The notes under the pieces are model-generated. The model was not told the origin of the DNA and did not search any database. It worked only from the letters and a program-made list of their open reading frames with translations. A DNA stretch of 64,000 nucleotides from a virus, in IMG/VR virus record IMGVR_UViG_3300022753_000060. One strand, written 5' to 3'. Positions 2,458 through 47,414 of the stretch are shown here, piece by piece; the stretch's first letter is position 1; each line of letters begins with the position of its first letter. A program made the position numbers and the translations under genes.

Positions 2458-2741
2458 TGTTAGAATTTATTTTAAAGAAAGATAAAAAACATAATTCACT
2501 TTGCCAGATTAAAAAAGATGATATTGTTATTTATCTAACAGAAAAAGAATTAGAAATTCTCATAGAAGATATTTATGAAAAAAGACGAGATGCTTTTGAC
2601 AATATTCCTGTATTAACTATAATGAAACAAGAAATAGATGATTTGAAAAGTACAGTTAATAATTTATATGAAGAAATGGCTGAAATGCAGTCAGATATGG
2701 ATGATTTAGAAGATGAATTGAATGAATACAGGGAGGATTAA
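2457..2741 (+). CDS. hypothetical acidic protein
   Basis: 94-aa ORF, stop/start overlap. Confidence 0.45.
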   Translation: MLEFILKKDKKHNSLCQIKKDDIVIYLTEKELEILIEDIYEKRRDAFDNIPVLTIMKQEIDDLKSTVNNLYEEMAEMQSDMDDLEDELNEYRED

Positions 2742-3106
2742 TGAAACAGACTATTAGAATAGGTACATTTGAAACTAACTCAAGTTCAACTCATTCTTTA
2801 ATACTAGTTAATGTTGATGAATTTGAAAAATTTAAAAATAAAGAATTATATTTTTATATATGGGGTGATAAATTTTTAAAGAAAGAAGAAATTGCAGAAC
2901 TTGAGGATTTTAAAAGTGAATACCCAGATTATAAAGAGTTAGATGACTCTGAAAAAGAAACCGCTATCAATGATTTTATTTGTGATTTTTCAGAATGTGA
3001 TTATCCAGTTTTAGGAACATATCATAGCATGGATATATGTACTCGAGGAGTATATGATAAAGATGGCAATAAACAAATAGCATTTAGTTATTATATATCA
3101 GGTTAA
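2741..3106 (+). CDS. MKQxIR-TFETNSSSxHS family protein (paralog 1 of 6)
   Basis: N-terminus MKQTIRIGTFETNSSSTHSLIL shared with 5 other ORFs in window; divergent C-terminus. Confidence 0.6.
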   Translation: MKQTIRIGTFETNSSSTHSLILVNVDEFEKFKNKELYFYIWGDKFLKKEEIAELEDFKSEYPDYKELDDSEKETAINDFICDFSECDYPVLGTYHSMDICTRGVYDKDGNKQIAFSYYISG

Positions 3107-3120
3107 AGGAGAATAAAAAA

Positions 3121-3525
3121 ATGAAACAAACAATTAGACAAAATACTTTTGAAACGAATAGTAGTTCTGTACATAATATGGTAGTTATTCCTGAAAGTAA
3201 AATGGAAGCGTGGGAGAATAACGAACTATATTATGCTAGATATGTATGGGGAAAAGAAGTAAAAGAATTTGTTAAGAAAAATAATGGTAGATTATTGTAT
3301 ACCAAACAAGAACTTATAGATTCTGGAATGTTTGATGATATGCCAAAAAGGGAAGATTTTGAAGATGAATATGAGTTCGAAGATGCAATAGAAGAATATT
3401 TTGATGATAGTGATTTTGTAACTGCTGATAAATGGTCAAGAGAATTGGAAGAAGATGAGCATATTTATATAACAGAATCTGGTGAAAAATTACATATAAT
3501 TTGTCAATATGGTTATGAAGGATAG
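3121..3525 (+). CDS. MKQxIR-TFETNSSSxHS family protein (paralog 2)
   Basis: N-terminus MKQTIRQNTFETNSSSVHNMVV; RBS aaggaga upstream. Confidence 0.6.
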   Translation: MKQTIRQNTFETNSSSVHNMVVIPESKMEAWENNELYYARYVWGKEVKEFVKKNNGRLLYTKQELIDSGMFDDMPKREDFEDEYEFEDAIEEYFDDSDFVTADKWSRELEEDEHIYITESGEKLHIICQYGYEG

Positions 3526-4315
3526 TATTTTAGTTCAATTAAACACTTCTTTTAATGATTATTGTTTTTATGAAAAAGAACATTATTACACTTATAAAGA
3601 TAAAAGAGTAAAGTGCAGTGTAACACAGTTTGTAAGTCAAAAACATATAGAATTCGATAAAGAAAATATGAGTGCTTACGTTGCAAAGAGAGATAAAGTT
3701 TCTCAAGAAGAAGTTCTTAAAAAATGGGATATTGCTGCTAAGTTATCTTGTGATGTAGGTACTTTATTTCATTTAAGAAGTGAGCAGCTTGCTAATAATA
3801 AAGTATTTGATATTGATTATAGTTCTTATGCAAATTTAGAACATATTTCAGATATAAAAGGAAGACTTGAAAAACTAATACCTTTACAAGATAAATTCTT
3901 CTTAGATATTCATAATAAACTGATACCTATAAAAACAGAGTTTACTGTAGGATATGAAGATATAATAGCTGGTAATATAGATTTATTAGCTTGGAATGTT
4001 AAAGATCAAGAATTTCAGATATGGGATTATAAAACTAATAAAGATATAAAAACGAGTAATAAATATCAGAAATTATTAGATGAGTTTGATTTTCTAGATG
4101 ACTGTGAGTTAAATAAATATTCAATACAACTTGGTATTTATAAAGAACTTTTACAAAGAAAATTAGGTATAAAGATTGGTAAATGTTATTTAGCTTGGTT
4201 TAATGAGAATAACGATGATTACAAGATATTTAAATGTCTAGACTTAGAACAATCTATTAAACAATGCTTAGATAACTTAATAAGGAAAGAGATAGATGGA
4301 AATAACTCCAATTAA
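3509..4315 (+). CDS. PD-(D/E)xK nuclease (RecB/Cas4-like)
   Basis: Motifs GNIDLLAW...EFQIWDYKTNK (hhhD ... E ... hDYKT) typical of RecB-family nuclease core. Confidence 0.5.
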   Translation: MVMKDSILVQLNTSFNDYCFYEKEHYYTYKDKRVKCSVTQFVSQKHIEFDKENMSAYVAKRDKVSQEEVLKKWDIAAKLSCDVGTLFHLRSEQLANNKVFDIDYSSYANLEHISDIKGRLEKLIPLQDKFFLDIHNKLIPIKTEFTVGYEDIIAGNIDLLAWNVKDQEFQIWDYKTNKDIKTSNKYQKLLDEFDFLDDCELNKYSIQLGIYKELLQRKLGIKIGKCYLAWFNENNDDYKIFKCLDLEQSIKQCLDNLIRKEIDGNNSN

Positions 4316-5105
4316 AACAAAGTTAGACAATGTAGGGAATAATATTAAAATATACACTCTAAGTGATATGCATATAGGTGATGCAAATGCTGATCTACCT
4401 ACATTAAGAATGATTATTGATTTTATTAAAAATACCCCAGAATGTTATTGTATTTTATTAGGTGATATACTAAATACTGCTTTAAAAATGTCTAAGTCAG
4501 ATATTTATAGTGAGGCCTTGAGCCTATCTGAAGCGCAAAAATTAGCATTAGAATTATTATTACCTATTAAAGATAAAATACTAGCAATGACACCAGGTAA
4601 TCATGAGAATAGAGTTTGGAAAGAAGTTGGGGTAGATTTATCTTTATGGTTAGCTGAAAAGTTAGGTATTCAAGATAGATATAGAAATAATGGTATAGCA
4701 CTAACAATTCAATTCGGTAAAGATGTAAATGGTAATCCTTTTAGATTAAATATATTTGGTCAACATGGTGCTTATGGTGGCGGTAGAAAATTAGGTGCTG
4801 CTATGAATGCACTTGAAGATTTAGATGGCATTGTTGGCAATGCAGATATCTATATAAGAGCGCATACACATCAACCAATTCAAGGTTCAAGAAATATATT
4901 CTTATTTGATGATAAAGGTAACATAAGTAGAAATACAAAGTATTATTTCAATAGCCCATCAGTAATGAATTATGGTGGATATGCTTACGATAAAGGCTAT
5001 AAACCAACAGATGATACTCCTTGCTATTTGAATATTAGAGCTGTCTCTCAAAGAAAAGGAACTAAAACTTTAAAGAATTTTAAAATAGATAAAGTGAGTT
5101 TGTAG
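4296..5105 (+). CDS. calcineurin-like metallophosphoesterase
   Basis: LSDMHIGD, LLGDIL, PGNHEN, GQHG, AHTHQ metallophosphatase motifs in order. Confidence 0.6.
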   Translation: MEITPIKTKLDNVGNNIKIYTLSDMHIGDANADLPTLRMIIDFIKNTPECYCILLGDILNTALKMSKSDIYSEALSLSEAQKLALELLLPIKDKILAMTPGNHENRVWKEVGVDLSLWLAEKLGIQDRYRNNGIALTIQFGKDVNGNPFRLNIFGQHGAYGGGRKLGAAMNALEDLDGIVGNADIYIRAHTHQPIQGSRNIFLFDDKGNISRNTKYYFNSPSVMNYGGYAYDKGYKPTDDTPCYLNIRAVSQRKGTKTLKNFKIDKVSL

Positions 5106-7389: not shown

Positions 7390-7614
7390 ATGAAAACTAT
7401 TTTAGAAGAATCTGAGTTGAGATCAGAATTATTGATAGAATTAAAAGGCTATAGGAAATTAGATAAAAACGTACCGCTTTATGAGAAAGGATATCATCAA
7501 TTGTTTGGAACATCATTACGCACAATGACTAGTTCGCAGATAAACGATATGCTTATATTTATAACTAATATGAGGTTGTGTTACGAAAATAGAAATTTAA
7601 ACTGTATATTATAA
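7390..7614 (+). CDS. hypothetical protein
   Basis: ORF track starts 7369, but RBS aaggagaa precedes ATG at 7390. Confidence 0.4.
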   Translation: MKTILEESELRSELLIELKGYRKLDKNVPLYEKGYHQLFGTSLRTMTSSQINDMLIFITNMRLCYENRNLNCIL

Positions 7615-7619
7615 TGTAA

Positions 7620-7940
7620 GGTCTTTTTCAGCCAAATAAAGGTAGACCTAAATGGATAGCGATGCTTTGGAACTTATAGTTTAAGGTAATTTAGGTGAGT
7701 TAAGTTATATCTAAAAATCAAGATGCAGACTATCGCTCCCAAGACAGAGAGAATTAAAGAATAAAGTATTTGGAATCATTTATATCTTAAGCTGTCAGAT
7801 ATAAATGATTGAGATCTATACGGACAGTATTCGCGAATGGCACCCAGGAAAGACTGGGGTATACGGATATAAGATCTTAAGGTAAGAGCCCTGAGTAAGG
7901 GAAGTGTCGGTTCGATTCCAACTATATCCCAAATTAATTA
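7620..7940 (+). ncRNA. candidate structured non-coding RNA with tRNA-like 3' module (7865-7930)
   Basis: No ORF. 3' part folds as acceptor GGATATA/TATATCC with T-arm GTCGG-TTCGATT-CCAAC, but only ~66 nt with a degenerate anticodon arm. Upstream 250 nt is rich in short helices (e.g. CCCAGGAAAGACTGGGG). Confidence 0.3.
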
Positions 7941-7994
7941 TAAGTAGCTACATAAAAGAGAATTAATTGACACTCTGGAAAGACAGAGATGCAT

Positions 7995-8113
7995 GGCAAG
8001 GTAGCTCAGCAGGAGAGCGCGTAATAATTGAATCTTGTAGAAAAGATTTGTAACTGCAACTCTAAAAAGGTCTTTTAAACCCGTGGTCGTTGGTGCAAAT
8101 CCAACCCTTGCCT
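7995..8113 (+). tRNA. tRNA-like gene with ~45-nt insertion (identity unresolved)
   Basis: Acceptor GGCAAGG/CCTTGCC, D-arm GCTC-AGCAGGA-GAGC, T-arm GTTGG-TGCAAAT-CCAAC, but ~70 nt between D- and T-arms instead of ~22. No CCA encoded. Confidence 0.4.
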
Positions 8114-8315
8114 CAATTAGTTTATTATATTCCATACTGTAATAAACTTTTTATGTTTTTATATATTTAAGGATTTTAATTAGTTTTTATTCATTAATTC
8201 TTTATTATCTCCTTATATGGTTCAATAAGATATAAAAACATATACTTTTGCCTATCTAAAAGTTTTGGCTAGTCTTTCAGATAGTTGCTTAGCTCTTTAA
8301 AACTAGCTGCGTTAT

Positions 8316-8452
8316 GCAGATATGGCGGAATAGGTAGACGCAAAGGACTTCTTCAATATAGGAACGAAAGTTACGAGTTCAATTCTCGTGTTGAAGACCA
8401 AAAATCCCTCGGTAGCAATATCGTATCGGTTCGACTCCGATTATCTGCACCA
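8316..8452 (+). tRNA. tRNA-like gene (Leu-type D-arm) with ~45-nt insertion; internal CAA-loop hairpin
   Basis: Acceptor GCAGATA/TATCTGC + A + CCA; D-arm TGGCGGAATAGGTAGACGC (class II/Leu-like); T-arm ATCGG-TTCGACT-CCGAT; internal hairpin ACGAG-TTCAATT-CTCGT. Total 137 nt. Confidence 0.4.
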
Positions 8453-8806
8453 TTACAATTAGATAAATCTTTAAAGTAGAAGATAATAGAAATATCAAAT
8501 CGTGTTCCAATCGCTACGTATTTCTGCCTACTTTAGAAGAGATTTAGCGGTCTCAAATTTCCTAAGTGTTTAGTAAGCATTGGTTGCAAGAAAGAGATTT
8601 AATTTAATTGTATTATATAAATAGATAAAGTCCAGATTAGACCCAATGAGTAATTTGAGGATGAGAGGTTTGGTTGTTGGCCGCAACTCCTAGGCGAAGA
8701 GATTGTCAGTAATAGAAGGAATTCTATTATCACTCACAAATTACAAGAGTTTGAGTATCATCAATTAGAGATAGGTTAGTGGCGCTCTATTATCTATTTG
8801 TTATAT

Positions 8807-8881
8807 TCCTCGGTAGCTCAGCGGTGGAGCACTCGGCTGTTAACCGATAGGCCGTCCGTTCGAATCGGACCCGGGGAGCCA
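8807..8881 (+). tRNA. tRNA-Asn(GTT)
   Basis: Cloverleaf: acceptor TCCTCGG/CCGGGGA, anticodon loop CTGTTAA, T-loop GTTCGAATC, CCA encoded. Confidence 0.8.
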
Positions 8882-9085
8882 TTAATAAGAAATAAATCCG
8901 ATAATACCAAGTTCTATTAGAAAGGTATTTACTCTAATTAATATGTGAGTTAATTAGATAGAGTAGTTCACAGTGGTTAATAGTTTCTTATTAAGCCAGG
9001 ATAGTTAAACAAGCAAATAATGGGTCTGTCGTGGGAATAACTAAAAACCCAAATGTGTCCTTTTGCGTTAAGGTTAAACGCACAA

Positions 9086-9160
9086 TGCGAATTAACTCAA
9101 TGGTAGAGTGGCTGCTTCATACGCAGTAAGTTATAGGTTCGAGTCCTGTATTCGCAACCA
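9086..9160 (+). tRNA. tRNA-Met(CAT)
   Basis: Acceptor TGCGAAT/ATTCGCA, D ACTC-AATGGTA-GAGT, anticodon stem GCTGC/GCAGT, loop TTCATAC, CCA encoded. Confidence 0.75.
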
Positions 9161-9419
9161 TAACCCTCTAACGACGGTTAGATAAAAATGCAGATGGGTT
9201 CGACATGACTTTGTGAGTTTCAAAGTAAAATCTCCGTTCCTTATGTAGAAAGCGGTAGGGTACATACGTTTTTAGAATTTTGACGAGACAAAAAGGTGCA
9301 CAAAAGTGGGAAGTTTGTATATTTGATGTTACACTATAAAACTGATAATAATAATTGATAAATCGAGTTTATATAATTTGAATAAACCAACCTATCATAT
9401 TATATAAAATATACTTTAT

Positions 9420-9495
9420 CCGAATGTAGGTCAGTTGGTAGACTGCGTGGTTTGGGACCATGAGGTCGGGGGTTCGAGTCCCTCCATTCGGACCA
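9420..9495 (+). tRNA. tRNA-Pro(TGG)
   Basis: Acceptor CCGAATG/CATTCGG, anticodon loop TTTGGGA, T-loop GTTCGAGTC, CCA encoded. Confidence 0.8.
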
Positions 9496-9497
9496 AT

Positions 9498-9573
9498 GCT
9501 TCCATGGCGCAATTGGCAGCGCAACTGACTTGTAATCAGTAGGTTGTCCGTTCGACTCGGACTGGAAGCTCCA
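9498..9573 (+). tRNA. tRNA-Thr(TGT)
   Basis: Acceptor GCTTCCA/TGGAAGC, D GCGC-AATTGGCA-GCGC, anticodon stem ACTGA/TCAGT, loop CTTGTAA, CCA encoded. Confidence 0.8.
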
Positions 9574-9882
9574 TAGGTGCTAATACCTTAGAGAATATAT
9601 TTAAGTGTACATAAAATATATTGATATTAAATTAGAAATTTGTGTATGGGTGCTACGAAGCCAAGGGACACATTACTTCAAGATGTTGCTCCTAAAATCG
9701 TGATTATATAATCAGTAAAAATCTCGAAGGGAAATGGTGCGGAAACAGCAGCTGTAGTTAAATGGAGTTAGATGAACTGCCCAAACACAATTAGACCTGC
9801 CTTGGATGATGGTCTATAAAATAAAAATGTAACGTCCAAGACCGTGGACCCTTAGCTCAGTTGGTTAGAGCTACCGGCTCAT

Positions 9883-10333
9883 CAAGAAGATTAAGAGGTA
9901 TTATATGGAAGAGAGTGCTGTTAAAGGAAATTGCGCTGAGCTTGCTTCAATGCATTATTTACAAAGTTTAGGTTGCGGAATATCAATTCCTTTTGGTTCA
10001 CTTAGATATGATTTTATTATTGATTATAAAAATAAATTATATCGTATCCAATGTAAAAGCGGAAAGTTAAAAAATAATGATGAATACTTGTATGTTCAAT
10101 TAACTTCCGGTAATAACAAAAGAGTAAAATTTTATGATGATTCAGAAATTGATTTCTTCTGTACAGCGATCGCTGGAAAATGTTATCTTTTGCCTAAAGA
10201 GGAAATTAAAACAAGAACATTTACGTTGAGATTAGTTGAACCAAAAAATAAACAAGAGCTCGGAATACATATGGCGCAAGATTACTTAGCTGATAAGATT
10301 CTTTCTTCCTTAAAATAAGCTCAATCGATGATG
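9883..10333 (+). mobile_element. putative group I intron in tRNA anticodon loop carrying homing-endonuclease ORF
   Basis: Insertion between anticodon positions 36/37; 5' splice after U, last intron nt G; contains 137-codon ORF 9905-10318. Confidence 0.5.
9905..10318 (+). CDS. intron-encoded small endonuclease, PD-(D/E)xK-like (I-Ssp6803I-like architecture)
   Basis: 137 aa with candidate active-site pattern E12 ... D36 (YDFIID) ... Q49-C-K51 (RIQCK). Lies within the tRNA(CAT) intron. Confidence 0.4.
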   Translation: MEESAVKGNCAELASMHYLQSLGCGISIPFGSLRYDFIIDYKNKLYRIQCKSGKLKNNDEYLYVQLTSGNNKRVKFYDDSEIDFFCTAIAGKCYLLPKEEIKTRTFTLRLVEPKNKQELGIHMAQDYLADKILSSLK

Positions 10334-10376
10334 AACCGGTTGGTCCGGGGTTCGAGTCCCTGAGGGTCCACCACAT

Positions 10377-10461
10377 GGGATGTTTGTCTAGCGGCAATGA
10401 CCTGAGACTGTAAATCTCATCTCTTCGGAGTTCGGTGGTTCGAGTCCATCACATCCCACCA
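10377..10461 (+). tRNA. tRNA-Tyr(GTA)
   Basis: Acceptor GGGATGT/ACATCCC, anticodon stem TGAGA/TCTCA, loop CTGTAAA, long variable arm, CCA encoded. Confidence 0.75.
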
Positions 10462-10723
10462 TTATATCTAGGTTAAATATTAGACCAGCCCGATATGGAT
10501 ACGGGAAAGTATAGGTGTAAATCCTATGGTATAAATAAGTACTTATCAACTTATAGTCAAAAGATAGGTGGTTTCATTAAGTACCAGAGATATGTCTCGA
10601 ATAAAGAGCTTAATCGATTGCGAATGTATCATATGTTAAGTTGCAGGTAAAGCTTGTAATCCAAAATAGCAAGTCGTATCAGTCTTATATTGTTAGTGAG
10701 GTGACTCCACATAGACATTTATA

Positions 10724-10799
10724 TAGCGGGGTGGAGAAGATGGAATCTCGTCGGACTCATTATCCGAAGGTCACTGGTTCGAGCCCAGTCCCCGCAACC
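10724..10799 (+). tRNA. tRNA(CAT), third CAU species (possible initiator-type, 1:72 mismatch)
   Basis: Acceptor AGCGGGG/CCCCGCA (A1xA72 mismatch), D GAGA-AGATGGAA-TCTC, anticodon stem TCGGA/TCCGA, loop CTCATTA, CCA encoded. Confidence 0.65.
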
Positions 10800-10802
10800 A
10801 TT

Positions 10803-10878
10803 TGTTCTCATAGTATAAGGGATTAGTACAAGGGTCTTCTAAACCTTAAATCTTGGTTCGAATCCAGGTGGGAACACC
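10803..10878 (+). tRNA. tRNA-Arg(TCT)
   Basis: Acceptor GTTCTCA/TGGGAAC, anticodon stem AGGGT/ACCTT, loop CTTCTAA, CCA encoded. Confidence 0.75.
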
Positions 10879-10881
10879 ATA

Positions 10882-10955
10882 TAGGCTTTTAGTTTAAAGG
10901 TAGAACAACAGACTTTGACTCTGTAGGTGGTAGTTCGATTCTATCAGAGCCTGCC
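10882..10955 (+). tRNA. tRNA-Gln(TTG)
   Basis: Acceptor AGGCTTT/AGAGCCT, anticodon stem ACAGA/TCTGT, loop CTTTGAC, CCA encoded. Confidence 0.75.
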
Positions 10956-11073
10956 ATTTCTTATATCTATTCCTTATTACGCGAGAGTTAGTCATTAAGG
11001 TGAGAATCAAGTACGATATAAGAATGTAACCATCGGCGGCGTAGTGGTAACTCAATAGGTGGTTACAAATTTT

Positions 11074-11147
11074 AGGCCCTTAGTTTAAAGGTAAAACTAT
11101 GGTCTCCAAAACCATTGTTGGAAGTTCGAGTCTTTCAGGGCCTGCCA
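11074..11147 (+). tRNA. tRNA-Trp(CCA)
   Basis: Acceptor AGGCCCT/AGGGCCT, anticodon stem ATGGT/ACCAT, loop CTCCAAA, CCA encoded. Confidence 0.75.
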
Positions 11148-11150
11148 AAT

Positions 11151-11224
11151 GCGACATTGGTGTAGTGGTAACATTCCTGCCTTCCAAGCAGTTGTCGTCG
11201 GTTCAAATCCGACATGTCGCTCCA
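11151..11224 (+). tRNA. tRNA-Gly(TCC)
   Basis: Acceptor GCGACAT/ATGTCGC, anticodon loop CTTCCAA, T-loop GTTCAAATC, CCA encoded. Confidence 0.7.
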
Positions 11225-11228
11225 ATAT

Positions 11229-11304
11229 AGGAGAGTGGCCAAATGGTTAAGGTTTCTGTCTGATACACAGAAGATTATAGGTTCAAGTCCTATCTCTCCT
11301 ACCA
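11229..11304 (+). tRNA. tRNA-Ile(GAT)
   Basis: Acceptor AGGAGAG/CTCTCCT, anticodon stem TCTGT/ACAGA, loop CTGATAC, CCA encoded. Confidence 0.75.
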
Positions 11305-11307
11305 TAT

Positions 11308-11383
11308 GCCTGGATAGCCTAGTTGGTCAAGGCAGTGGACTGAAAATCCACCCATCTTAGTTCGATTCTAAGTCCAGGCACCA
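11308..11383 (+). tRNA. tRNA-Phe(GAA)
   Basis: Acceptor GCCTGGA/TCCAGGC, D-arm AGCCTAGTTGGTCAAGGC, anticodon stem GTGGA/TCCAC, loop CTGAAAA, CCA encoded. Confidence 0.8.
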
Positions 11384-11386
11384 TGT

Positions 11387-11477
11387 GGTAAGTTGGGTGA
11401 ATGGTTAAACCAGCAGTTTGCTAAACTGCCGTAGGAAGCAATTTCTACTATTAGTTCGAATCTAATACTTACCGCCA
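11387..11477 (+). tRNA. tRNA-Ser(GCT)
   Basis: Acceptor GGTAAGT/ACTTACC, anticodon stem GCAGT/ACTGC, loop TTGCTAA, long variable arm, CCA encoded. Confidence 0.75.
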
Positions 11478-11483
11478 AAATAT

Positions 11484-11559
11484 GGCTCTATCGTCTAATT
11501 GGCTAGGACAGCACGCTTTCAATGTGCAAACAGGAGTTCGAATCTCCTTAGAGCTACCA
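11484..11559 (+). tRNA. tRNA-Glu(TTC)
   Basis: Acceptor GGCTCTA/TAGAGCT, anticodon stem GCACG/TGTGC, loop CTTTCAA, CCA encoded. Confidence 0.7.
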
Positions 11560-11562
11560 CGT

Positions 11563-11651
11563 GGAGAGTTACCAAAGCGGTCGTACTGGGATGGTCTTGA
11601 AAACCATTTGTCTGTAAGGGCACGGGGGTTCGAATCCCTCACTCCCCGCCA
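11563..11651 (+). tRNA. tRNA-Ser(TGA)
   Basis: Acceptor GGAGAGT/ACTCCCC, anticodon stem ATGGT/ACCAT, loop CTTGAAA, long variable arm, T-arm GGGGG-TTCGAAT-CCCTC, CCA encoded. Confidence 0.7.
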
Positions 11652-11859
11652 AGCCTGTTAGGAATGTGCACTTAAAACTAATGTTATGAATCCTAACTTT
11701 AAAAGCAGATGTTTTGGCTGTCTGATTTCAGAGTACAGATAAAACTCTTGTCCTTTCCTTGGGAGATAAAGGAGCTTCTTAATACTTGTCTTGACAGCTA
11801 AAAGATAATATCAATGTTCCTAACGCATTTATTTGAAGGTATATAAAGTTAGGGTATAT

Positions 11860-11936
11860 GGTCCGTTAGTTCAGTTGGTTAGAACGTCTGCCTGTCACGC
11901 AGAAGGTCAGCGGTTGAAGTCCGCTACGGATCGCCA
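11860..11936 (+). tRNA. tRNA-Asp(GTC)
   Basis: Acceptor GGTCCGT/ACGGATC, D GTTC-AGTTGGTTA-GAAC, anticodon stem TCTGC/GCAGA, loop CTGTCAC, CCA encoded. Confidence 0.8.
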
Positions 11937-13389: not shown

Positions 13390-14895
13390 ATGACATTTTT
13401 ACAAGGATTAAAAAATGAATTAAATACCTCAACCACAGAAAATGGTGCAAAAGGGTATGCTGCTACTGGTAAAGCATTATTAGACTTTAACTTTAAAATA
13501 TCTTCATTTAGGGATTCAAGTGAAGAAGAAATTGAGATAGAATTTAAAAAAGCATGGTTTGAAAACAAAGAACTCGCTCTTAAATACCTATTCTATGCTA
13601 GAGATGCAAGAGAAGGTTTAGGAGAAAGAAGACTATTTAGAACATGTGTAACTGAAATTATAGATGAATTAGATGAAAGAGTATTTGATTGGATTGTTGA
13701 ATTTGGTAGATACGATGATTTATTTGTTTTCTTTGGTACTAAACTAGAAAAACAAATGCTTGAATACGTAAAAACCCAATTGAGAAAAGATGCTAAAAAT
13801 CTTGTTAATAAAGAGCCTATATCATTATTAGCTAAATGGATGCCATCAATAAATACATCTTCAAGCGAAACAAAACGAAAAGCAAGGAGAATTAAATCTT
13901 ATTTAGGAATGTCAGAAAAAGATTATAGAAAAATGCTTTCTGATTTAAGAAACCATTTAGATGTGTTAGAAAGAAAATGTTCTTCAAATAAATGGGAAGA
14001 GATAAAATATGAAAATGTACCATCTCAAGCTAACATAAAATATATGGGGGCATTTTTAAGACATGATGAAGATAGAAGAAGAGATTATTTATCTAAACTT
14101 GAAAAAGGTGAGACAAAAATAAATGCTTCAACTCTATTCCCTCATGATATAGTTTGCAAGTATAGAAATTGTAGAAATAAAGATATCACATTAGAAGAAT
14201 TATGGAAATCTTTACCTGATTATGTTCAAGGAGATAGTTCAACTATAGTAGTTAGAGATGGTTCAGGTTCGATGACTTGTAATGTAGGAAAGACTAGCAC
14301 ATCTGCATTAGATGTTGCAACTGCATTATCTATTTATTTTGCAGAAAGATGTAAAGGTGAGTTTAAAGATAAATTTATCACTTTTTCGAATCAACCAAGA
14401 TTAGTTTCTTTTGAAAAATATGATAATTTAAAAGATAAATTAAATGTAGCTTATGCAGAAGCAGAGGTTGCTAATACTAATATTGAAGCTGTATTTGATT
14501 TAATATTAAAAACAGCAGTTAAAAATAATATGTCTCAAGAAGAGATACCAAATATTTTAATTATATCAGATATGGAATTTGATGAATGTGCTACAACAAA
14601 CGCAACAAGAACTAATAGATGGGATCATACTGCTCCAGATGCTAAATTATTTGATGCTATAAGACAAAGATATGAGAATGCAGGTTATAAATTACCTAAA
14701 ATGTCTTTCTGGAATGTTAATTCAAGAACAAAGACAATCCCAGTAATTCAAAATGATTTAGGGGTAGCTTTAGTATCAGGATTTAGTCCAGCAGTCGTAA
14801 ATATGGTTTTATCAAATGAAATAGATCCATATATAGCATTGCTAAAAGAAATAACTAAAGATAGATATGCAGAAATTACATTAAAAACTGTATAA
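13390..14895 (+). CDS. vWA-domain protein (DUF2828/TROVE-like)
   Basis: 501 aa; N-terminal TENGAKGY...ALLDFNFK; MIDAS-like DxSxS motif VRDGSGSMT; C-terminal ILIISDMEFDE. Confidence 0.4.
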   Translation: MTFLQGLKNELNTSTTENGAKGYAATGKALLDFNFKISSFRDSSEEEIEIEFKKAWFENKELALKYLFYARDAREGLGERRLFRTCVTEIIDELDERVFDWIVEFGRYDDLFVFFGTKLEKQMLEYVKTQLRKDAKNLVNKEPISLLAKWMPSINTSSSETKRKARRIKSYLGMSEKDYRKMLSDLRNHLDVLERKCSSNKWEEIKYENVPSQANIKYMGAFLRHDEDRRRDYLSKLEKGETKINASTLFPHDIVCKYRNCRNKDITLEELWKSLPDYVQGDSSTIVVRDGSGSMTCNVGKTSTSALDVATALSIYFAERCKGEFKDKFITFSNQPRLVSFEKYDNLKDKLNVAYAEAEVANTNIEAVFDLILKTAVKNNMSQEEIPNILIISDMEFDECATTNATRTNRWDHTAPDAKLFDAIRQRYENAGYKLPKMSFWNVNSRTKTIPVIQNDLGVALVSGFSPAVVNMVLSNEIDPYIALLKEITKDRYAEITLKTV

Positions 14896-15215
14896 TATAA
14901 TAAGACACATACAGCAATTCTACATAAGGAACTTGAAATTCGTTTTATACTGTGTCTTGTAAAAAATAAGACCTTTACAGCAATTTTAAAAAACTATTCG
15001 TTGGGAGAATATCTTTTTCAGGTCTTGTAAATAATTTCGACAAGGAAAAGTCGCTTTAAAACCATGTTGTCCTATACCAACGGAGTGATAGGGTGTAGCG
15101 TTCCACTAGCAAACGTTTGGTTCTTGATAAGTGAGCCAATGATAAATTAGAGTAATCTTAACAAAAAGAATCTTGACACTTGCGGAAAGACAGCCAAGAA
15201 ACAACTTATCCATGT

Positions 15216-15309
15216 AGGGGTGTACGATAATTGGAAGTCAAGCGGTCTTCAAAACCGTAACAATAGGTCTCCAAAACCTATAGCGCGGGTTCGATTCCTG
15301 CAACCCCTG
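15216..15309 (+). tRNA. candidate opal-suppressor tRNA(UCA), Trp-derived/Sec-like, with an extra CCA-loop hairpin; no CCA encoded
   Basis: Acceptor AGGGGTG/AACCCCT (6/7 bp), D-arm GATAATTGGAAGTC, anticodon arm GCGGT-CTTCAAA-ACCGT (anticodon TCA), extra hairpin TAGGT-CTCCAAA-ACCTA, T-arm GCGGG-TTCGATT-CCTGC. Sits in 550-nt ORF-free island. Confidence 0.5.
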
Positions 15310-15448
15310 GCTCAATGAGTAAGTACCTTCACGCTGGTTGAGCTGTTTTAACCAAACTTACTCATTTTAAGTAACTTAGCTTTGGTAATGGTGCACCTAC
15401 TAAGTTACCAGAGCTATTTAACTTAATATTATTAAAGGAGAAGAAAAG

Positions 15449-19285: not shown

Positions 19286-20025
19286 TGTATATCTATAAAA
19301 TAACCAACAACTCAAATGGGAAAGTATACATTGGGAAGACAACTAAAAGTGTTGAGACCAGATATAACCAACACTTAAAAGCATCTGAAATATATGCTCA
19401 AGAACATAGAAATCTATCATTACTTTATGAGGCAATTAATAAATATGGTAAGTGTAATTTCGGTGTCGAGACAATTGACACTGCCTCTACTATAGAAGAG
19501 TTAAATAAGAAAGAGATTTATTGAATAAAGTTTTATAGAGACTCATTTGGCAAAGAGTTTTGTTACAATATGGCATCGGGTGGAGATGGTGGGGATACAA
19601 ACTCTGGCAAGACCCAATCAAAGGAATGGATAGCTAAACGCTTGGCTAGTAGAGAAACTTATGATGTATCAGATGAAACTCGTGAGAAACAAAGACTAGC
19701 ACATTTAAATCAAGTACCTTGGAATAAAGGCAAGAAAATGTCAGCAGAGTATTGTGAGAAATGTAGAGAACGGAGTAAAGGTAACACTAATCATTTAGGG
19801 CATAAAGCAACTGAATTACAGAGAAAGCGTATGAGTGACTCACATAAAGGTCAGATACCTTGGAATAAAGGTTTGAAGGGGTGTATTACCCAGTCAGAAG
19901 AAACAAAGAAAAAACGAGCAGATAAATTAAGAGGGACTATTGGTATTAATGATGGCACCAAAAATACTCGAGTACCTAAAGAATACTTAGACAAGTATTT
20001 AAATGCAGGATGGTCGATTGGTTGA
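19285..20025 (+). CDS. GIY-YIG homing endonuclease with NUMOD3-like repeats; contains in-frame TGA at 19522-19524 decoded as Trp
   Basis: ORFs 19285-19524 and 19570-20025 are in the same frame, split only by TGA. N-term YIYKITN..GKVYIGKT (GIY-YIG); around the TGA ..KKEIY[TGA]IKFYRDSFGKEFCYNMASGGDGG matches I-TevI ..ENFWIKEL..GYNI, so TGA falls on the conserved Trp. C-terminal half repeats QIPWNKGKK / QIPWNKGLK. Confidence 0.7.
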
Positions 20026-33141: not shown

Positions 33142-34230
33142 ATGTCTAATATAGATGAAGTAAGAACTCTAGCCAAATTAGTTGCTGATAAAATTAGAAA
33201 GGATAAATGTATGTTGAATATAAAAGAAATAATAAGTAAACCTGAGTATAGATGGCTAGAAGAATATAAAGATAGATTATGCTTCTTAGTTATATCAGGT
33301 TCTCATGGATATGGTACTAATGTAGAAGGTAGTGATATTGATATAAGAGGAGTTATGCTACCCACTAAAGATGAATTGATTGGGTTAAAAACTTTTAAAC
33401 AAAGAGAAGATTCGAGCACAGACACAACTATTTATGAGTTTAATCAATTTATCAAACTTGCTATGGCAAATAACCCAAATGTGATTGAAATGTTAGGTTT
33501 CAAACATTATCTTATATTTAATGAAATTGGGCATGACTTACTTGATAGTTTACCTTTATTATTAAGTAAAAAATGTTATCAAACATTTAATGGTTACGCA
33601 GTAGCGCAATTAAGAAAAATTGAAAATGCTTTAGCAAGTACTGAATATACTGAAGAAGAAAAAGTAAAACATATAAAGCAAACAATGGATGTTGCTATGA
33701 TGAAACTATCTGAATCAAACAAATTATTTGCAGACGGCTGTATAAATGTTACTGCAGATTTAGATAAACTTTATATTGACTGTAATATAAAACAAGCACC
33801 AATAGACCTAGTAAGAAGTTCTTTAAATGATATATTAACTATAGAAAAAAGTTATAATAAAATAAATCAAAGAAATACTAAACCAACTATGGAAAAATTG
33901 AATAAACATTGCATGCACTTATTTAGACTAATCATAACTTGTTGTGAGATACTAGAGAAAGGTGTATTAAATTCTTATAGAGAAGATGATAGGGATTTTC
34001 TATTGGATATCAGAAATGGTAAGTTTATAAAAGATGGTCATTTAACAGCAGAATTTACAAATACTTTAAATGGATTAAATAAAAGATTACAATTAGCAGA
34101 GAGACATTCTACATTGCAAAAAACACCTAATTATGATGAATTGAATAAATTTGTCACCGATGTAAACAGTAAAGTTATAACTGATACTGTATTAAAATAC
34201 AAAGAACCATTGGAGGAGATCATACTATAA
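33142..34230 (+). CDS. predicted nucleotidyltransferase (Pol-beta superfamily)
   Basis: ISGSHGYGTNVEGSDIDIRGV = GS-x(n)-DxD NTase motif; 362 aa. Confidence 0.5.
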   Translation: MSNIDEVRTLAKLVADKIRKDKCMLNIKEIISKPEYRWLEEYKDRLCFLVISGSHGYGTNVEGSDIDIRGVMLPTKDELIGLKTFKQREDSSTDTTIYEFNQFIKLAMANNPNVIEMLGFKHYLIFNEIGHDLLDSLPLLLSKKCYQTFNGYAVAQLRKIENALASTEYTEEEKVKHIKQTMDVAMMKLSESNKLFADGCINVTADLDKLYIDCNIKQAPIDLVRSSLNDILTIEKSYNKINQRNTKPTMEKLNKHCMHLFRLIITCCEILEKGVLNSYREDDRDFLLDIRNGKFIKDGHLTAEFTNTLNGLNKRLQLAERHSTLQKTPNYDELNKFVTDVNSKVITDTVLKYKEPLEEIIL

Positions 34231-36149: not shown

Positions 36150-37421
36150 ATGGAGATAAAATTACCAAAATATGTTGAATTACTAATAAACATGTTAAAT
36201 GAAAATGGTTATGCAGCATATGCAGTTGGTGGCGCTATTAGAGATTCTATATTAGGTATTGAACCAAAAGATTGGGATATAGCAACAAGTGCTTTACCTG
36301 CTGAAACAAAGAAACTATTTGAAGATAATAGTTTTCACAAGAGTGATATGGATATTTATTTTAAAGTTATTCCAACAGGAGAAAAATATGGCACTATGAC
36401 TATTGAAGTTATAGAAAAATATAAATTAAATAAATATGAACATCTTGCAGGTATTTATGAAATAACCACATTTAGATATGATAGCGATTACACTGATGGT
36501 AGAAGACCAAATAATGTAACTTTTGGTGAATCTATTATAGATGATTTAGATAGAAGAGATTTTACTATGAATGCTATTGCTTATAACCCATTAGTAGGTA
36601 TAGTAGACCCACATAATGGTGTTGAAGATATTAAAAATAAAATAGTTAAAGCAGTAGGAGACCCACAGGTTAGAATAAAAGAAGATGCTTTGAGAATTTT
36701 AAGGGGCATTAGATTTGCTTGTAAGTATAATTTTGAGTTAGAGAATGCAACAAGCAATGTTATAGCGGGTACTGGTAGTCTCTTAAAGAATGTATCAAAA
36801 GAAAGAATTACTGAAGAAGTTAAGAAGATATTAGAATATTCAAAAGGTAATTCTGAAACTTTAAATTCAACAATAGAAACACTAGCAGAGATATTTGAGA
36901 TACCTCAAAACAAAGTAAGTAAATGGGGTAGTAACCAGGTCATCATAGATATAGATAATGACAACCCACCTATGTTAAAGTTGTATTCAATATTGAATAA
37001 GTATAAGTCAATGATAGATGCAGAAATTTGGATGAGGTTATATAAATATAGTAACCAACAAATCAAAGAGGTTATTAGCTATTATAAGATGTCAAAGTTT
37101 ATGGAAGATGTTCAGCAACAAGATATTGTCCTAACAATCAAGCAACTATTCAATAAATTTGAACATGCATACGTATGCAAGTATTTGGGTATTTACACAA
37201 AAATAGAAGGAATAGATTTGTCAGAAATTACAAGTCAACCATATAGATTACAAGACTTGGCAATAGATGGGCACTTTCTTCAATCTACATTTGATATAAG
37301 TGGTGAGAAGATAGGTAAGGTTCTTAATTTCTTATTAGGCAAAGTTATGGAGAATTCCCAACTAAACACAATAGAAACTTTATCTGAAATTACAAGGAGA
37401 TACTTAAATGGAGAAAATTAA
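36150..37421 (+). CDS. cca: CCA-adding enzyme / tRNA nucleotidyltransferase (class II)
   Basis: AVGGAIRDSILG...DWDIAT (GGxxRD..DxD head), RRDFTMNAIAY; 423 aa. Confidence 0.7.
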   Translation: MEIKLPKYVELLINMLNENGYAAYAVGGAIRDSILGIEPKDWDIATSALPAETKKLFEDNSFHKSDMDIYFKVIPTGEKYGTMTIEVIEKYKLNKYEHLAGIYEITTFRYDSDYTDGRRPNNVTFGESIIDDLDRRDFTMNAIAYNPLVGIVDPHNGVEDIKNKIVKAVGDPQVRIKEDALRILRGIRFACKYNFELENATSNVIAGTGSLLKNVSKERITEEVKKILEYSKGNSETLNSTIETLAEIFEIPQNKVSKWGSNQVIIDIDNDNPPMLKLYSILNKYKSMIDAEIWMRLYKYSNQQIKEVISYYKMSKFMEDVQQQDIVLTIKQLFNKFEHAYVCKYLGIYTKIEGIDLSEITSQPYRLQDLAIDGHFLQSTFDISGEKIGKVLNFLLGKVMENSQLNTIETLSEITRRYLNGEN

Positions 37422-37831: not shown

Positions 37832-38389
37832 ATGATCTATAATAGCATTTATTTGAATAAAAAACATGAAAAAGTTTGTAAGGAATTCTATAAAAGGTTT
37901 GCTTACGGTGAACAATATTTAAGTTTGAATCATATTGGTGAAATAGAAGAGATGCCTAGAGATTATTATTGGCAAGAAAGAGAGGTATATAATATAATAT
38001 TACCTTATATAAATTTACTTAAAAATAAAGGGGTAAAGGATAAAGATTTATATGGCAGATATGGATTTGTATCTCTAGTATATAACCTACAAGTAGCTTA
38101 TAATAAAGTTAAAAATAATGCTTTAACAATTATAAATAGATATGCTTTCCCAACTGCTCTAATAGAAGATGGTTCAGTTGATATCGATAGCTTAGAAGAA
38201 GAGGGATTAGCTCCAGGGAAAATCTTAGTTTATAGACAAGGTGCTCAAAAACCAGATACTAGTCAGGATTTCTTAAAAACAGATATTTTATTTTCATTAT
38301 CTACTTATGAAGAGCACCTGGAAACTGAAATGCGTAAAATGTATGATTTATTCTTAGAAGGATGGTATAAAAACAATGAGAAAATATAA
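37832..38389 (+). CDS. hypothetical protein
   Basis: 185-aa ORF. Confidence 0.45.
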   Translation: MIYNSIYLNKKHEKVCKEFYKRFAYGEQYLSLNHIGEIEEMPRDYYWQEREVYNIILPYINLLKNKGVKDKDLYGRYGFVSLVYNLQVAYNKVKNNALTIINRYAFPTALIEDGSVDIDSLEEEGLAPGKILVYRQGAQKPDTSQDFLKTDILFSLSTYEEHLETEMRKMYDLFLEGWYKNNEKI

Positions 38390-39014
38390 TAAAATTGAAG
38401 CAATTTATGCAAGAGATGAAGAAACTAAAAAGACTATAGATAAATATAGAAACCCAACTATAGAATTTTTAAAAGATTTAACTTGGCAATTTACTGAAAA
38501 AGTGGATGGTACTAATGTTAGAGTTCATTGGGATGGTCATAAAGTAACGTTTGGTGGAAGAACAGATAATGCATCAATGCCTGCATTTTTAGTAAATAGA
38601 CTAAATGAATTATTCGGTGGTAATGCTAATGAAGAACTATTTGAACAAAAATTTGGTGAAATGGAAGTAACCTTATATGGTGAAGGATATGGACCTAAAA
38701 TTCAATCAGGTGGAGCTTATAGAAATGATGTAGATTTTATTTTATTTGATGTTCAAATAGGAGATAATTATCAACCAAGAGAATCTGTAGAAGATATAGC
38801 GAATTACTTTAAATTAGATATTGTACCTATTTTATTTGAAGGTCCATTAAGTAGAGGGATCAACTATGTTAAAACAGAAAGAAGAAGTGCTATAGCAAAG
38901 AATGGGCACTTGATTGAAGGACTTGTTGCAAGACCTAAATTTGAATTGAAAGATAGATGCGGGAATAGAATTATTGTTAAAATAAAATATGAAGATTTAA
39001 AGGATATATTATAA
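38376..39014 (+). CDS. ATP-dependent RNA ligase-like adenylyltransferase (Rnl2-like nucleotidyltransferase domain)
   Basis: Motif I EKVDGTNVRV (KxDG), III DFILFDV, IV HLIEGLVARP, V KIKYEDLK; 212 aa. Confidence 0.5.
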   Translation: MRKYNKIEAIYARDEETKKTIDKYRNPTIEFLKDLTWQFTEKVDGTNVRVHWDGHKVTFGGRTDNASMPAFLVNRLNELFGGNANEELFEQKFGEMEVTLYGEGYGPKIQSGGAYRNDVDFILFDVQIGDNYQPRESVEDIANYFKLDIVPILFEGPLSRGINYVKTERRSAIAKNGHLIEGLVARPKFELKDRCGNRIIVKIKYEDLKDIL

Positions 39015-39227: not shown

Positions 39228-40100
39228 ATGAAACAACTTATTAGAAATTCAACCTTTGAAACAAATAGCAGTTCAATGCATAGTTTAGTTATATCTAAGA
39301 AAGTTAAACCTTACTCAGTTAGTGATAAATCATTGCACTATTATGGCAATGATTTTGAACTATTTGGATGTTGTGATACTCATTCTTTTGGAAGAACACC
39401 TTTTGAAGTTTTATCTAGTCCAAAAGATAAACTAAGATATTATGTAGCACATTATGTAGGTTTCAAAAAAGAAAAAGAAAGGTTAAAAGAAGTTGAAGAT
39501 CTTGTTTATGAGCTTACAGGATGTTCTAGGGAGAAAATAAAATTATATTGTGAAGAAGAATACCCTTGGAAAAAGAAACCAGAAAAATCTTATGGATATG
39601 CTGGTATAAATGACACAGGCGAAGATGTATTTGATTATATTGAAAAGAATAATATATCTTTGAGAGAATTTATCCTTGACCCTAGGTACACTGTTATTGT
39701 AGATGGTGATGAATACCAAGAGTTTAAAAAATTATTTAAAAAAGGTATTATTGATTTAGATAATATAGATTATATATCTAGTGGTAAGCATTTTTGGATT
39801 GATGATATTAAAACATTTAGTCTATATTACATTAATAGATTTGTAAATGATGATGTTTATAATGAATTTATGGAAGAGATAGATAATTATAATAATGAAT
39901 TTATAAAATGTATTGAAATAGAAGATGAAGAGGATGTTGATATAAATCAATCAGCTATGATAACATTTGCATCAGTATTAGAATGTTTTAAGCATTTAAC
40001 TTATGGCAGAAATATACCAATCAAACTTATTCTTAAAACTCATTCACTAGATGATTTTAAACCAATATTAAAATATATAAGTTTAGAAGTTGATAATTAA
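39228..40100 (+). CDS. MKQxIR-TFETNSSSxHS family protein (paralog 4)
   Basis: MKQLIRNSTFETNSSSMHSLVI; 290 aa; intrinsic terminator (AGTTGATAATTAATTATCAACT + T-run) at 40088-40120. Confidence 0.6.
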   Translation: MKQLIRNSTFETNSSSMHSLVISKKVKPYSVSDKSLHYYGNDFELFGCCDTHSFGRTPFEVLSSPKDKLRYYVAHYVGFKKEKERLKEVEDLVYELTGCSREKIKLYCEEEYPWKKKPEKSYGYAGINDTGEDVFDYIEKNNISLREFILDPRYTVIVDGDEYQEFKKLFKKGIIDLDNIDYISSGKHFWIDDIKTFSLYYINRFVNDDVYNEFMEEIDNYNNEFIKCIEIEDEEDVDINQSAMITFASVLECFKHLTYGRNIPIKLILKTHSLDDFKPILKYISLEVDN

Positions 40101-47331: not shown

Positions 47332-47414
47332 ATATTTAGATAAAGTAGAGAAGAATGGTTCTTTCAAGAAAAATTATTTTCTTGAAAAAGTAGAATTATA
47401 TGAGGAGGAAGAAA

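Follow-up and report, generated by a model that had tools for sequence, protein, structure and literature searches.

The question raised by the locus described here is what kind of intron interrupts a tRNA gene when nearly all of the interrupting sequence codes for a protein, and how a mature tRNA could be obtained from such a gene. The locus lies in a 64,000-nucleotide (nt) stretch of viral DNA (IMG/VR record IMGVR_UViG_3300022753_000060; the whole stretch is referred to as the window), in which a tRNA(CAU) gene is split by a 451-nt insert bearing the predicted gene of a PD-(D/E)xK endonuclease. An initial annotation, made from the sequence alone, had described this insert as a group-I-like intron. 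The reading preferred here, to which a probability of about one half is assigned, is that the insert belongs to a class of ribozyme-less hairpin tRNA introns of large phages, for which cutting by a protein and resealing by a phage ligase are the inferred steps. The window is AT-rich (28% G+C) and phage-like, with all but two of the open reading frames (ORFs) of at least 100 amino acids on the + strand, and the split gene is part of a tRNA array that spans about 7865-11936. Its parts are as follows.

9846-9882, + strand: 5' exon of tRNA(CAU), GGACCCTTAGCTCAGTTGGTTAGAGCTACCGGCTCAT (read from the sequence and by ARAGORN)
9883-10333, + strand: intervening sequence (hairpin intron), 451 nt, between tRNA positions 36 and 37
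9883-9904, + strand: 5' non-coding intron arm (CAAGAA, GAUU-AA-GAG, then a spacer up to the ATG)
9905-10318, + strand: predicted PD-(D/E)xK homing endonuclease gene, 137 amino acids, I-Ssp6803I family (PF11645)
10319-10333, + strand: 3' non-coding intron arm (G-CUC-AAUC-GA-UGAUG)
10334-10373, + strand: 3' exon of tRNA(CAU), AACCGGTTGGTCCGGGGTTCGAGTCCCTGAGGGTCCACCA (read from the sequence and by ARAGORN)

The 5' exon comprises the 5' strand of the acceptor, the D arm, the 5' strand of the anticodon stem and the loop bases C32 U33 C34 A35 U36, and the 3' exon comprises A37 and A38, the 3' strand of the anticodon stem, the variable loop, the T arm, the 3' strand of the acceptor and ACCA. When joined, the exons yield a 77-mer that was identified by ARAGORN as tRNA-Met(cat) with a complete cloverleaf and CCA, and the junction expected in the spliced tRNA reads ACCGGCTCAT directly followed by AACCGGTTGG. 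The split gene was missed by standard ARAGORN and by Rfam and was recovered, with a 451-nt intron, using the intron mode of ARAGORN; that mode itself placed the intron so as to give the anticodon AUG ('His'), but CAU was preferred because of exon-body similarity and of a 36/37 rule that holds across the family. The exons, the cloverleaf with CCA and the 451-nt insert at 36/37 are as the initial annotation had them, the insert being seen in the sequence and by ARAGORN intron mode and its site recurring in relatives, and all of its coordinates and residues are correct. The two non-coding arms amount to 22 + 15 = 37 nt, the remainder of the insert being the endonuclease ORF, and a Shine-Dalgarno-like AAGAGG is located at 9892-9897, within the 5' arm and ahead of the ORF. 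tRNA genes split by inserts of this type are currently overlooked by annotation.

Over 77 nt, the exon body of the window tRNA(CAU) shares 87% identity with an intact tRNA(cat) of another phage locus; when four relatives were scored as well, three of them, like the window locus, gave 82-89% over 71-77 nt to uninterrupted tRNA(cat) genes. The window tRNA has G1-C72 and an ACCGG/CCGGU anticodon stem and, judged by eye and by body similarity, resembles an elongator Met or a lysidine-type Ile2 tRNA rather than an initiator. Between intron-bearing loci, compensatory changes are seen in the acceptor, anticodon and T stems, and the canonical cloverleaf is kept, which speaks for selection on the split tRNA. 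Chance is excluded as an explanation of the split tRNA(CAU), since seven distinct homologous loci share the split and carry such compensatory exon changes.

The ORF at 9905-10318 matched the Pfam family PF11645 (PDDEXK_5) with E=1.6e-19 and 70.8 bits (cut-off 26.1) and also matched PHROG 5018. When the single sequence was compared with the PDB, the best match was 2OST (E=0.0028), the structure of I-Ssp6803I, and with a profile built from 20 homologues 2OST was the sole PDB match (E=5.6e-12). Across these 20 homologues the catalytic residues D36, Q49 and K51 are invariant and E12 is nearly invariant, so that the 137-amino-acid PD-(D/E)xK nuclease with E12, D36, Q49 and K51 and its likeness to I-Ssp6803I, both proposed initially, are borne out. 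Judged by its sequence, the product is clearly an endonuclease of the I-Ssp6803I family. I-Ssp6803I is reported to cut its DNA site on either side of CAT, leaving 3-nt 3' overhangs, a pattern used here as a lead only.

Homologues of the window endonuclease were found only in phage-like contigs, within tRNA arrays. In seven distinct loci, with endonucleases 58-99% identical, a tRNA(CAU) gene is split at the same point (CAT/CAAGWAG...GATGATG/AACCG, the slashes marking the junctions); these loci are referred to as the CAU clade. With the family alignment as query, 78 loci were recovered from IMG/VR, and in about 50 of them the ORF lies inside a split tRNA gene, with introns of 450-490 nt and a few of up to 699 nt. 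About 40 phage loci display the same architecture and the same 36/37 site with 14 different anticodons (UGU, UGG, UUU, GCU, UGC, UCU, UAC, UGA, GUC, GUU, GAU, UUC, UCC and CAU), as read from a natural 7-nt loop taking five bases from the 5' side. This reading of the anticodons is supported independently by the exon bodies, which are similar to intact tRNAs of the isotype expected (Ala, its G3.U70 included, Val, Thr, Pro, Ser, Asp and Met), and by the two presence/absence pairs described below, and no locus with decayed exons was found among the split loci compared. Free-standing relatives of the endonuclease are located between tRNA genes in Pectobacterium phage My1 and in Kuttervirus. A genome-collection scan for the family gave two loci only and a single-protein scan of viral contigs gave none, while the pattern GGCTCATCAAGNAG...GAA proved unspecific in viral contigs and returned no new family members.

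The element is mobile and inserts cleanly, always at 36/37, since near-identical phages carry the uninterrupted tRNA gene. In locus L010 a 484-nt insert splits a tRNA-Asp gene whose joined exons equal the uninterrupted gene of the near-identical locus L009 at 73/73 positions; L010 holds two endonuclease-bearing hairpin introns, in tRNA-Val(UAC) and tRNA-Asp(GUC) (2439-2984 and 4303-4859), about 1.3 kb apart. Among 30 distinct cultured Schiekvirus phages (31 records), only EFP01 carries an insert, of 463 nt, the others having an intact tRNA-Asn gene, and the joined EFP01 exons equal the tRNA-Asn of phage iF6 only with the cut placed after GTT (GUU/AA), that is, at 36/37. Such precise presence/absence polymorphism in near-identical phages is what homing predicts, cleavage by the endonuclease being itself a prediction from its sequence. 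The position of the EFP01 gene is given below.

2414-2949 of locus L013, corresponding to about 105242-105777 of NC_047796.1: interrupted tRNA-Asn gene of phage EFP01

In the published EFP01 genome this interrupted gene is unannotated and its endonuclease is listed as the hypothetical protein gp109; the DNA polymerase gene of the same phage is in pieces, with HNH endonuclease genes in between.

The assignment as a group-I-like intron was not borne out. No match to the Rfam group I model RF00028 was obtained even at E<=10 in 9500-10800, which includes the intron, or in the EFP01 intron, nor at the gathering threshold in the window or nine related loci, nor at E<=0.01 in 20 further related loci. 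Introns of groups I and II and known small ribozymes were rejected after Rfam, applied to the window and to 30 related loci at its gathering threshold and at relaxed ones, returned only tRNA, ROOL, tmRNA, RAGATH-33 and similar matches. There is also little room for a catalytic core, only 37 nt being non-coding, whereas none of 333 group I introns of bacterial tRNA genes is shorter than 184 nt (PMC13011429). That the ORF fills nearly the whole insert had been noted initially and is correct; the corollary, a ribozyme core within the ORF, does not hold, because synonymous sites should then be constrained and the fraction of identical codons at identical residues is flat along the ORF (0.36-0.71, mean 0.50; four sequences, 58-71% amino acid identity), which argues that no RNA constraint is embedded there. 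Likewise, the insert does follow a U and end in G at the window locus, but this is no sign of group I chemistry across the family: the last intron base over 41 homologous introns is A27/G7/C6/U1 and the exon base ahead of the intron is U29/C7/G3/A2, and the EFP01 intron ends in C at an unambiguous junction. The terminal G is explained by its pairing with C34 of the anticodon and the preceding U is U36, which pairs with A10331 near the intron 3' end in the minimum-free-energy fold of the window gene; neither this fold nor inspection by eye showed a U.G pairing to any 5'-proximal guide. Neither a group I core, nor room for one, nor a guide-paired U with a conserved terminal G was thus found; a group I assignment is not supported, and a cryptic ribozyme is unlikely.

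Two further ribozyme candidates were considered and set aside. Hammerhead-like CUGAUGA and hairpin-ribozyme-like AGAA motifs, seen by eye in some CAU-clade arms, were dropped, not being conserved within the clade. A ribozyme acting in trans from one of the unannotated array gaps was rejected as well: no Rfam match was obtained at relaxed threshold in 7600-9000 and 9500-10800, a scan covering all the gaps but that at 9161-9419, and the flanks of the split gene are not conserved in related loci. The four gaps (8450-8806, 9161-9419, 9574-9845 and 10462-10724; 260-350 nt) contain no tRNA and no ORF of at least 60 amino acids; none has an Rfam match at gathering threshold, and none of the three scanned at relaxed threshold (9161-9419 excepted) has one there either.

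What the arms of the insert share instead is a conserved hairpin, seen in the minimum-free-energy fold of the full 528-nt precursor, in which the two short arms and the anticodon are predicted to form a long irregular hairpin stacked on the anticodon stem. Its strands are listed below.

9879-9884, + strand: helix 1, 5' strand (U33 C34 A35 U36 / C+1 A+2), pairing with 10329-10334
10329-10334, + strand: helix 1, 3' strand (U G A U G / A37), pairing with 9879-9884
9889-9897, + strand: intron-closing helix, 5' strand (GAUU, AA bulge, GAG), pairing with 10320-10326
10320-10326, + strand: intron-closing helix, 3' strand (CUC AAUC), pairing with 9889-9897

Proceeding outward, the fold consists of the anticodon stem, U33:A37, the pairing of C34-A35-U36-C(+1)-A(+2) with U10329-G10333, a small internal loop and the closing helix, in which 9889-9892 pair with 10323-10326 and, after the AA bulge, 9895-9897 pair with 10320-10322. 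The 5' splice site lies within helix 1 and the 3' splice site at its base, the two junctions being three base pairs apart across the helix and flanking the anticodon triplet (a 3-nt 3' stagger), and the AAGAGG Shine-Dalgarno-like site is buried by the two segments of the closing helix. No bulge-helix-bulge could be formed from any pairing of the junction sequences, as judged from the window fold and by inspection.

Both helices are supported by covariation. In the CAU clade (seven sequences), 97.5% of cells of the hairpin are paired and six pairs are changed on both sides (GAUU/AAUC, GGCU/AGCU, GUUC/GAGC, GUCU/AGAC, GUCU/AGAU and GUUC/GAAU), with a covariation score reached by none of 500 shuffles, and sliding the partners reduced pairing to 13-48%. 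For the closing helix alone, 100% of cells are paired and four of seven pairs are changed on both sides. In other clades, where the sequence is different, the last ten intron bases pair in register with N34-N36 and the seven bases that open the intron; beyond helix 1 follows a small asymmetric loop, commonly A opposite CA (...YAAAYU... / ...RCAUUG...), and then a second helix that adjoins the start and stop codons. Across the family helix 1 is 88% paired, compared with 31-45% in shifted registers and 59% when partners were shuffled among loci. With one locus taken per anticodon (n=14), the anticodon triplet and the last three intron nt are 95% paired, a value reached in none of 2000 shuffles, in which pairing was 51%. 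As this pairing is far above shuffles in 14 anticodons, the intron end is tuned to each host anticodon. Two further searches led elsewhere: short-intron calls made by ARAGORN in related loci did not fit the hairpin rule, and the sole metagenome match in a search for ORF-less derivatives of the CAU hairpin was a chance match inside an ffh-like gene.

Under the preferred reading, the endonuclease would spread the element by cutting uninterrupted tRNA genes in DNA (homing). The precursor RNA would not splice itself; a protein nuclease would cut it at the two structure-defined sites across helix 1, and the tRNA halves would then be healed and sealed by phage-encoded RNA-repair enzymes. We infer maturation of the tRNA from the exon-intron pairing maintained in every isotype, and from CAU-clade proteins that at about 60% identity still reside in tRNA(CAU) genes with compensatory cloverleaf changes. 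Candidates for the sealing and healing steps are encoded in the window.

47400-48569, + strand: T4 Rnl1-like RNA ligase gene, candidate sealing enzyme (phrog_562, E=8.4e-46; the label of this family is 'RNA ligase and tail fiber protein attachment catalyst')
38376-39014, + strand: second RNA ligase gene, candidate sealing enzyme (PF09414, E=2.4e-18; phrog_548)
52388-53368, + strand: PNK-like P-loop kinase with an HD domain, candidate end-healing enzyme (AAA_33, E=5e-24; phrog_505)

To these the window adds an RlaP-family protein and a CCA-adding enzyme, for which positions are given below, and EFP01 encodes RtcB (gp162, PF01139, E=3e-59). The Rnl1, PNK and RtcB types of enzyme work on tRNAs with a break in the anticodon loop, as would result from excision of the insert. 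Two cutting activities were considered for the hairpin and rejected. RNase III leaves 2-nt overhangs, not 3, and for the arm of about 17-22 bp, which resembles its substrates, the required cuts are 3 nt apart. RNase P with tRNA 3'-end processing was rejected for the endonuclease-bearing hairpin, the 3' tail of which is the complement of the anticodon.

Several points weigh against this reading. A spliced tRNA and its RNA processing are predictions from sequence throughout. Candidate RNase families, EndA-like and HEPN included, were looked for in the window ORFs and none was found, nor was PF01974 among the 71 ORFs of at least 100 amino acids (70 searched with Pfam; 61298-62773 searched with PHROGs only, giving no match), in a search that covered 64 kb of what is probably a much larger genome. 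Both splice sites are located inside a helix or at its edge and not in bulges, and we know of no tRNA-splicing or double-stranded RNA nuclease that cuts with such geometry. RNA ligase, PNK and RtcB are common in large phages as a defence against host anticodon nucleases, so that the ligase and kinase support is circumstantial. An ORF-less derivative was not found in the search for CAU-hairpin derivatives. The intact exons could also stem from recent or repeated invasion of functional genes and not from selection. To these are added two observations that suit the main rival explanation, considered unlikely yet the one to be taken most seriously, that the insert is a selfish cassette which is never spliced: it would have knocked out a dispensable tRNA gene, no mature tRNA would be made, and the hairpin would serve the element itself, for example in translation control, in the stability or processing of its mRNA from a polycistronic tRNA transcript, or as inverted-repeat ends. 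The lack of the insert in 29 of the 30 distinct cultured Schiekvirus phages is as expected of a recent invader, and sequestration of the Shine-Dalgarno-like site by the closing helix fits a role in endonuclease expression. Such a view is also favoured by the frequent dispensability of phage tRNA genes, by the failure to find a splicing nuclease among the window ORFs and by the free-standing endonuclease relatives of My1 and Kuttervirus. It is hard to reconcile, however, with the covariation of the last three intron bases with the anticodon in 14 isotypes, unless the structure at the exon-intron junction is of consequence, and it leaves unaccounted for the undecayed exons at every locus compared, the site that is always exactly 36/37 and leaves a clean, joinable tRNA, and the CAU clade, in which endonucleases diverged to 58-71% identity remain at the same tRNA(CAU) site while the cloverleaf is kept by compensation.

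A different source for the cutting activity is the endonuclease itself, which in an improbable scheme would have a dual role, homing in DNA and cutting both strands of the precursor RNA hairpin three base pairs apart, after which a phage ligase would join the exons; the accompanying proposal, held to be no more probable, is that the RNA hairpin, consisting of the anticodon stem and the paired anticodon, mimics half of the double-stranded DNA target of the enzyme. In its favour, the two splice sites lie in a regular helix on either side of the anticodon triplet and are offset by a 3' stagger of 3 nt, which is suggestive if I-Ssp6803I leaves 3-nt 3' overhangs around CAT in DNA; the tuning of the intron end to each anticodon would be accounted for, and tRNA-splicing endonucleases have a fold derived from PD-(D/E)xK (PMC3424549). 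Conversely, the metal-dependent DNase residues would leave 3'-OH/5'-P ends, whereas RtcB in EFP01 and the PNK-like kinase in the window suit other chemistry, cleavage of double-stranded RNA is not known for any PD-(D/E)xK homing endonuclease, and the mimicry would extend to no more than half of the DNA site. If true, the arrangement would amount to a splicing cassette that is self-contained and works by protein only, and it would bridge, in evolutionary terms, homing endonucleases and the tRNA-splicing endonucleases of the same fold. The least probable of the explanations, by a small degree, is self-splicing, either by a group I core overlapping the ORF or by a small ribozyme formed from the hairpin arms and the tRNA. 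The U ahead of the window intron and its terminal G would suit it, as would the conserved CAU-clade termini CAAGWAG and GAUGAUG and an endonuclease family whose other known settings are group I introns of tRNA genes in bacteria (PMC1995217, PMC13011429), and RtcB or PNK with a ligase suit the 2',3'-cyclic phosphate and 5'-OH ends left by small self-cleaving ribozymes. Against it stand the results described above: no RF00028 or ribozyme family at E<=10 in 9500-10800 and in the EFP01 intron, or at the stricter thresholds in 29 related loci, 37 non-coding nt against at least 184 nt (PMC13011429), flat synonymous variation along the ORF, a terminal G and preceding U that are not conserved (C at the end of the EFP01 intron), no U.G guide pair, and hammerhead- and hairpin-ribozyme-like motifs that are not conserved.

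Among known systems, the tRNA-fMet intron of Synechocystis PCC 6803 with I-Ssp6803I, to which the locus had initially been likened, is 655 nt long with a 150-amino-acid ORF (PMC1995217), and cyanobacterial PF11645 group I introns have been placed at 33/34 by a recent survey (PMC13011429). The Synechocystis intron and the PF11645 introns in tRNA-Arg(UCU) of Bacteroidota and Campylobacterota share their endonuclease family with the window insert; PF11645 group I introns also occupy anticodon-loop sites of tRNA genes including CAU and UCU, as the phage inserts do, with homing presumably alike. However, the Synechocystis intron leaves about 200 nt for a group I ribozyme, compared with 37 non-coding nt of 451 in the window insert, which in addition is positioned at 36/37 and not 33/34, has no group I signature or conserved terminal G, and resides in a phage rather than a cellular genome. 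The likeness therefore extends to the endonuclease family and the region of the host gene, and not to size, position or group I features.

In the bulge-helix-bulge, two 3-nt bulges carrying the splice sites are separated by a 4-bp helix, cutting is carried out by EndA or Sen and ligation by RtcB or Trl1. The protein-spliced tRNA introns of archaea and eukaryotes and the phage insert are alike in their location in the anticodon arm, in the pairing of intron and anticodon and in having no ribozyme; in the archaeal and eukaryal system the sites are set by RNA structure and the ligase is of the RtcB type, which is found in at least one carrier phage (EFP01). The phage insert differs in having, as judged by eye, no two 3-nt bulges with a 4-bp helix, in its position at 36/37 and not 37/38, in that no EndA homologue was found among the window ORFs searched, and in its bacterial hosts. 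The element is best filed as related to the cyanobacterial group I case through its endonuclease and to archaeal and eukaryal enzymatic splicing through its logic.

Other comparisons concern single components. The enzyme families of T4 tRNA repair (Pnkp and Rnl1) and of bacterial RtcB repair are also encoded by carrier phages, but these pathways are known for the repair of nuclease damage and not as the ligation step of splicing. Free-standing endonucleases in phage tRNA arrays, such as T4 SegB (PMC8421152, PMC13096335), likewise promote inheritance of the cluster, whereas the window endonuclease lies inside a tRNA gene with flanks tuned to the anticodon. In the SOS splicing of DNA transposons from animal mRNAs (PMC12779559), excision proceeds via paired inverted ends and ligation is of the RTCB type; this is a eukaryotic mRNA system with unrelated components and the analogy is one of logic only. 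Short introns termed 'enigmatic', of which one is tRNA-like, were noted in 2018 in tRNA genes of Lak megaphages and left unexplained (Devoto et al., bioRxiv 10.1101/356790). They are likewise of phages and without an assignable class, the tRNA-like one recalling the 50-nt insert of the window tRNA-Leu described below; these introns are short and ORF-less, in contrast to the window element with its homing endonuclease, covarying hairpin and fixed 36/37 site.

No paper was found that describes ribozyme-less, endonuclease-bearing introns in phage tRNA genes, and the best reading is that they form a widespread, previously undescribed class; by the defining features examined, the element fits neither group I introns nor the bulge-helix-bulge. 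Bacterial tRNA introns have been thought to be self-splicing group I, or rarely group II, ribozymes, and to our knowledge structure-guided, protein-dependent tRNA splicing has so far been attributed only to archaea and eukaryotes. A 2014 review placed every phage intron known at the time in protein-coding genes (PMC3984707). Should the split tRNAs be matured, a route of tRNA splicing guided by structure and dependent on proteins must exist in bacteria or their phages, and phage RNA ligases and RtcB would gain a role beyond repair. The comparison of EFP01, which has the insert, with the 29 other cultured Schiekvirus phages such as iF6, which do not, makes the splicing question directly testable.

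Other interrupted or unusual tRNA genes were noted in the window. The tRNA-Leu(UAA) gene at 8316-8452 is split at 34/35 by a 50-nt insert (about 8351-8400) that forms a tRNA-like minihelix; its acceptor-like stem is of 7 bp (CUUCAAU/GUUGAAG), its T-arm-like hairpin reads ACGAG-UUCAAUU-CUCGU, and its ACCA end falls exactly at the 3' junction. Two other phage loci (L039, 831-966, and L051, 395-530) have a 49-nt insert at 32/33 of tRNA-Leu(UAA), also with an ACCA end and an acceptor-like terminal stem. These ACCA-ended inserts suggest that RNase P and tRNA 3'-end processing cut them out, with ligation as the next step. In the tRNA-Lys(UUU) gene at 7995-8113, a 47-nt insert (8022-8068) lies inside the anticodon stem (28/29); the joined exons form a clean 72-nt cloverleaf with CCA not encoded, and neither a bulge-helix-bulge nor a tRNA-like shape was seen in the insert. 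This gene is missed by ARAGORN and scores 40.6 bits with Rfam. A weak tRNA-like element (7865-7930; Rfam tRNA 25.6 bits, below threshold) is located at the start of the array, and a 97-nt tRNA with a long extra arm at 15215-15311 (ARAGORN SeC(tca); Rfam tRNA 38 bits) is possibly a UGA-reading suppressor, as in recoded large phages. Related arrays contain ROOL RNA (L002, L006 and L041), tmRNA (L043) and RAGATH-33 (L076), and that of L033 a weak, sub-threshold match to a Y-RNA-like RNA (YrlA).

Among the protein-coding genes, one for a DUF2828/DUF7788 protein adjoins the tRNA array both in the window (13390-14895) and in the distant carrier phage L006 (521-2050). The window also encodes an RlaP-family 'RNA repair pathway' nucleotidyltransferase (33142-34230), a CCA-adding enzyme (36150-37421), a PARP-like protein with a WGR domain (40341-41510) and a 489-amino-acid protein with an N-terminal Cu/Zn superoxide dismutase domain (57900-59369). 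Five paralogous ORFs (2741-3106, 3121-3525, 39228-40100, 45622-46215 and 54409-54963) share the N-terminus MKQTIR-x-TFETNSSS-x-HS; four of the five gave no individual Pfam match, 2741-3106 having been scanned only in the pool, and 39228-40100 gave no PHROGs match. In a pooled set of window ORFs, Pfam matches to GIY-YIG and NUMOD3 were obtained with one member each, possibly in the same protein, and a second homing endonuclease, of a different family, is therefore probable in the window, its carrier ORF by sequence probably being that at 19570-20025.

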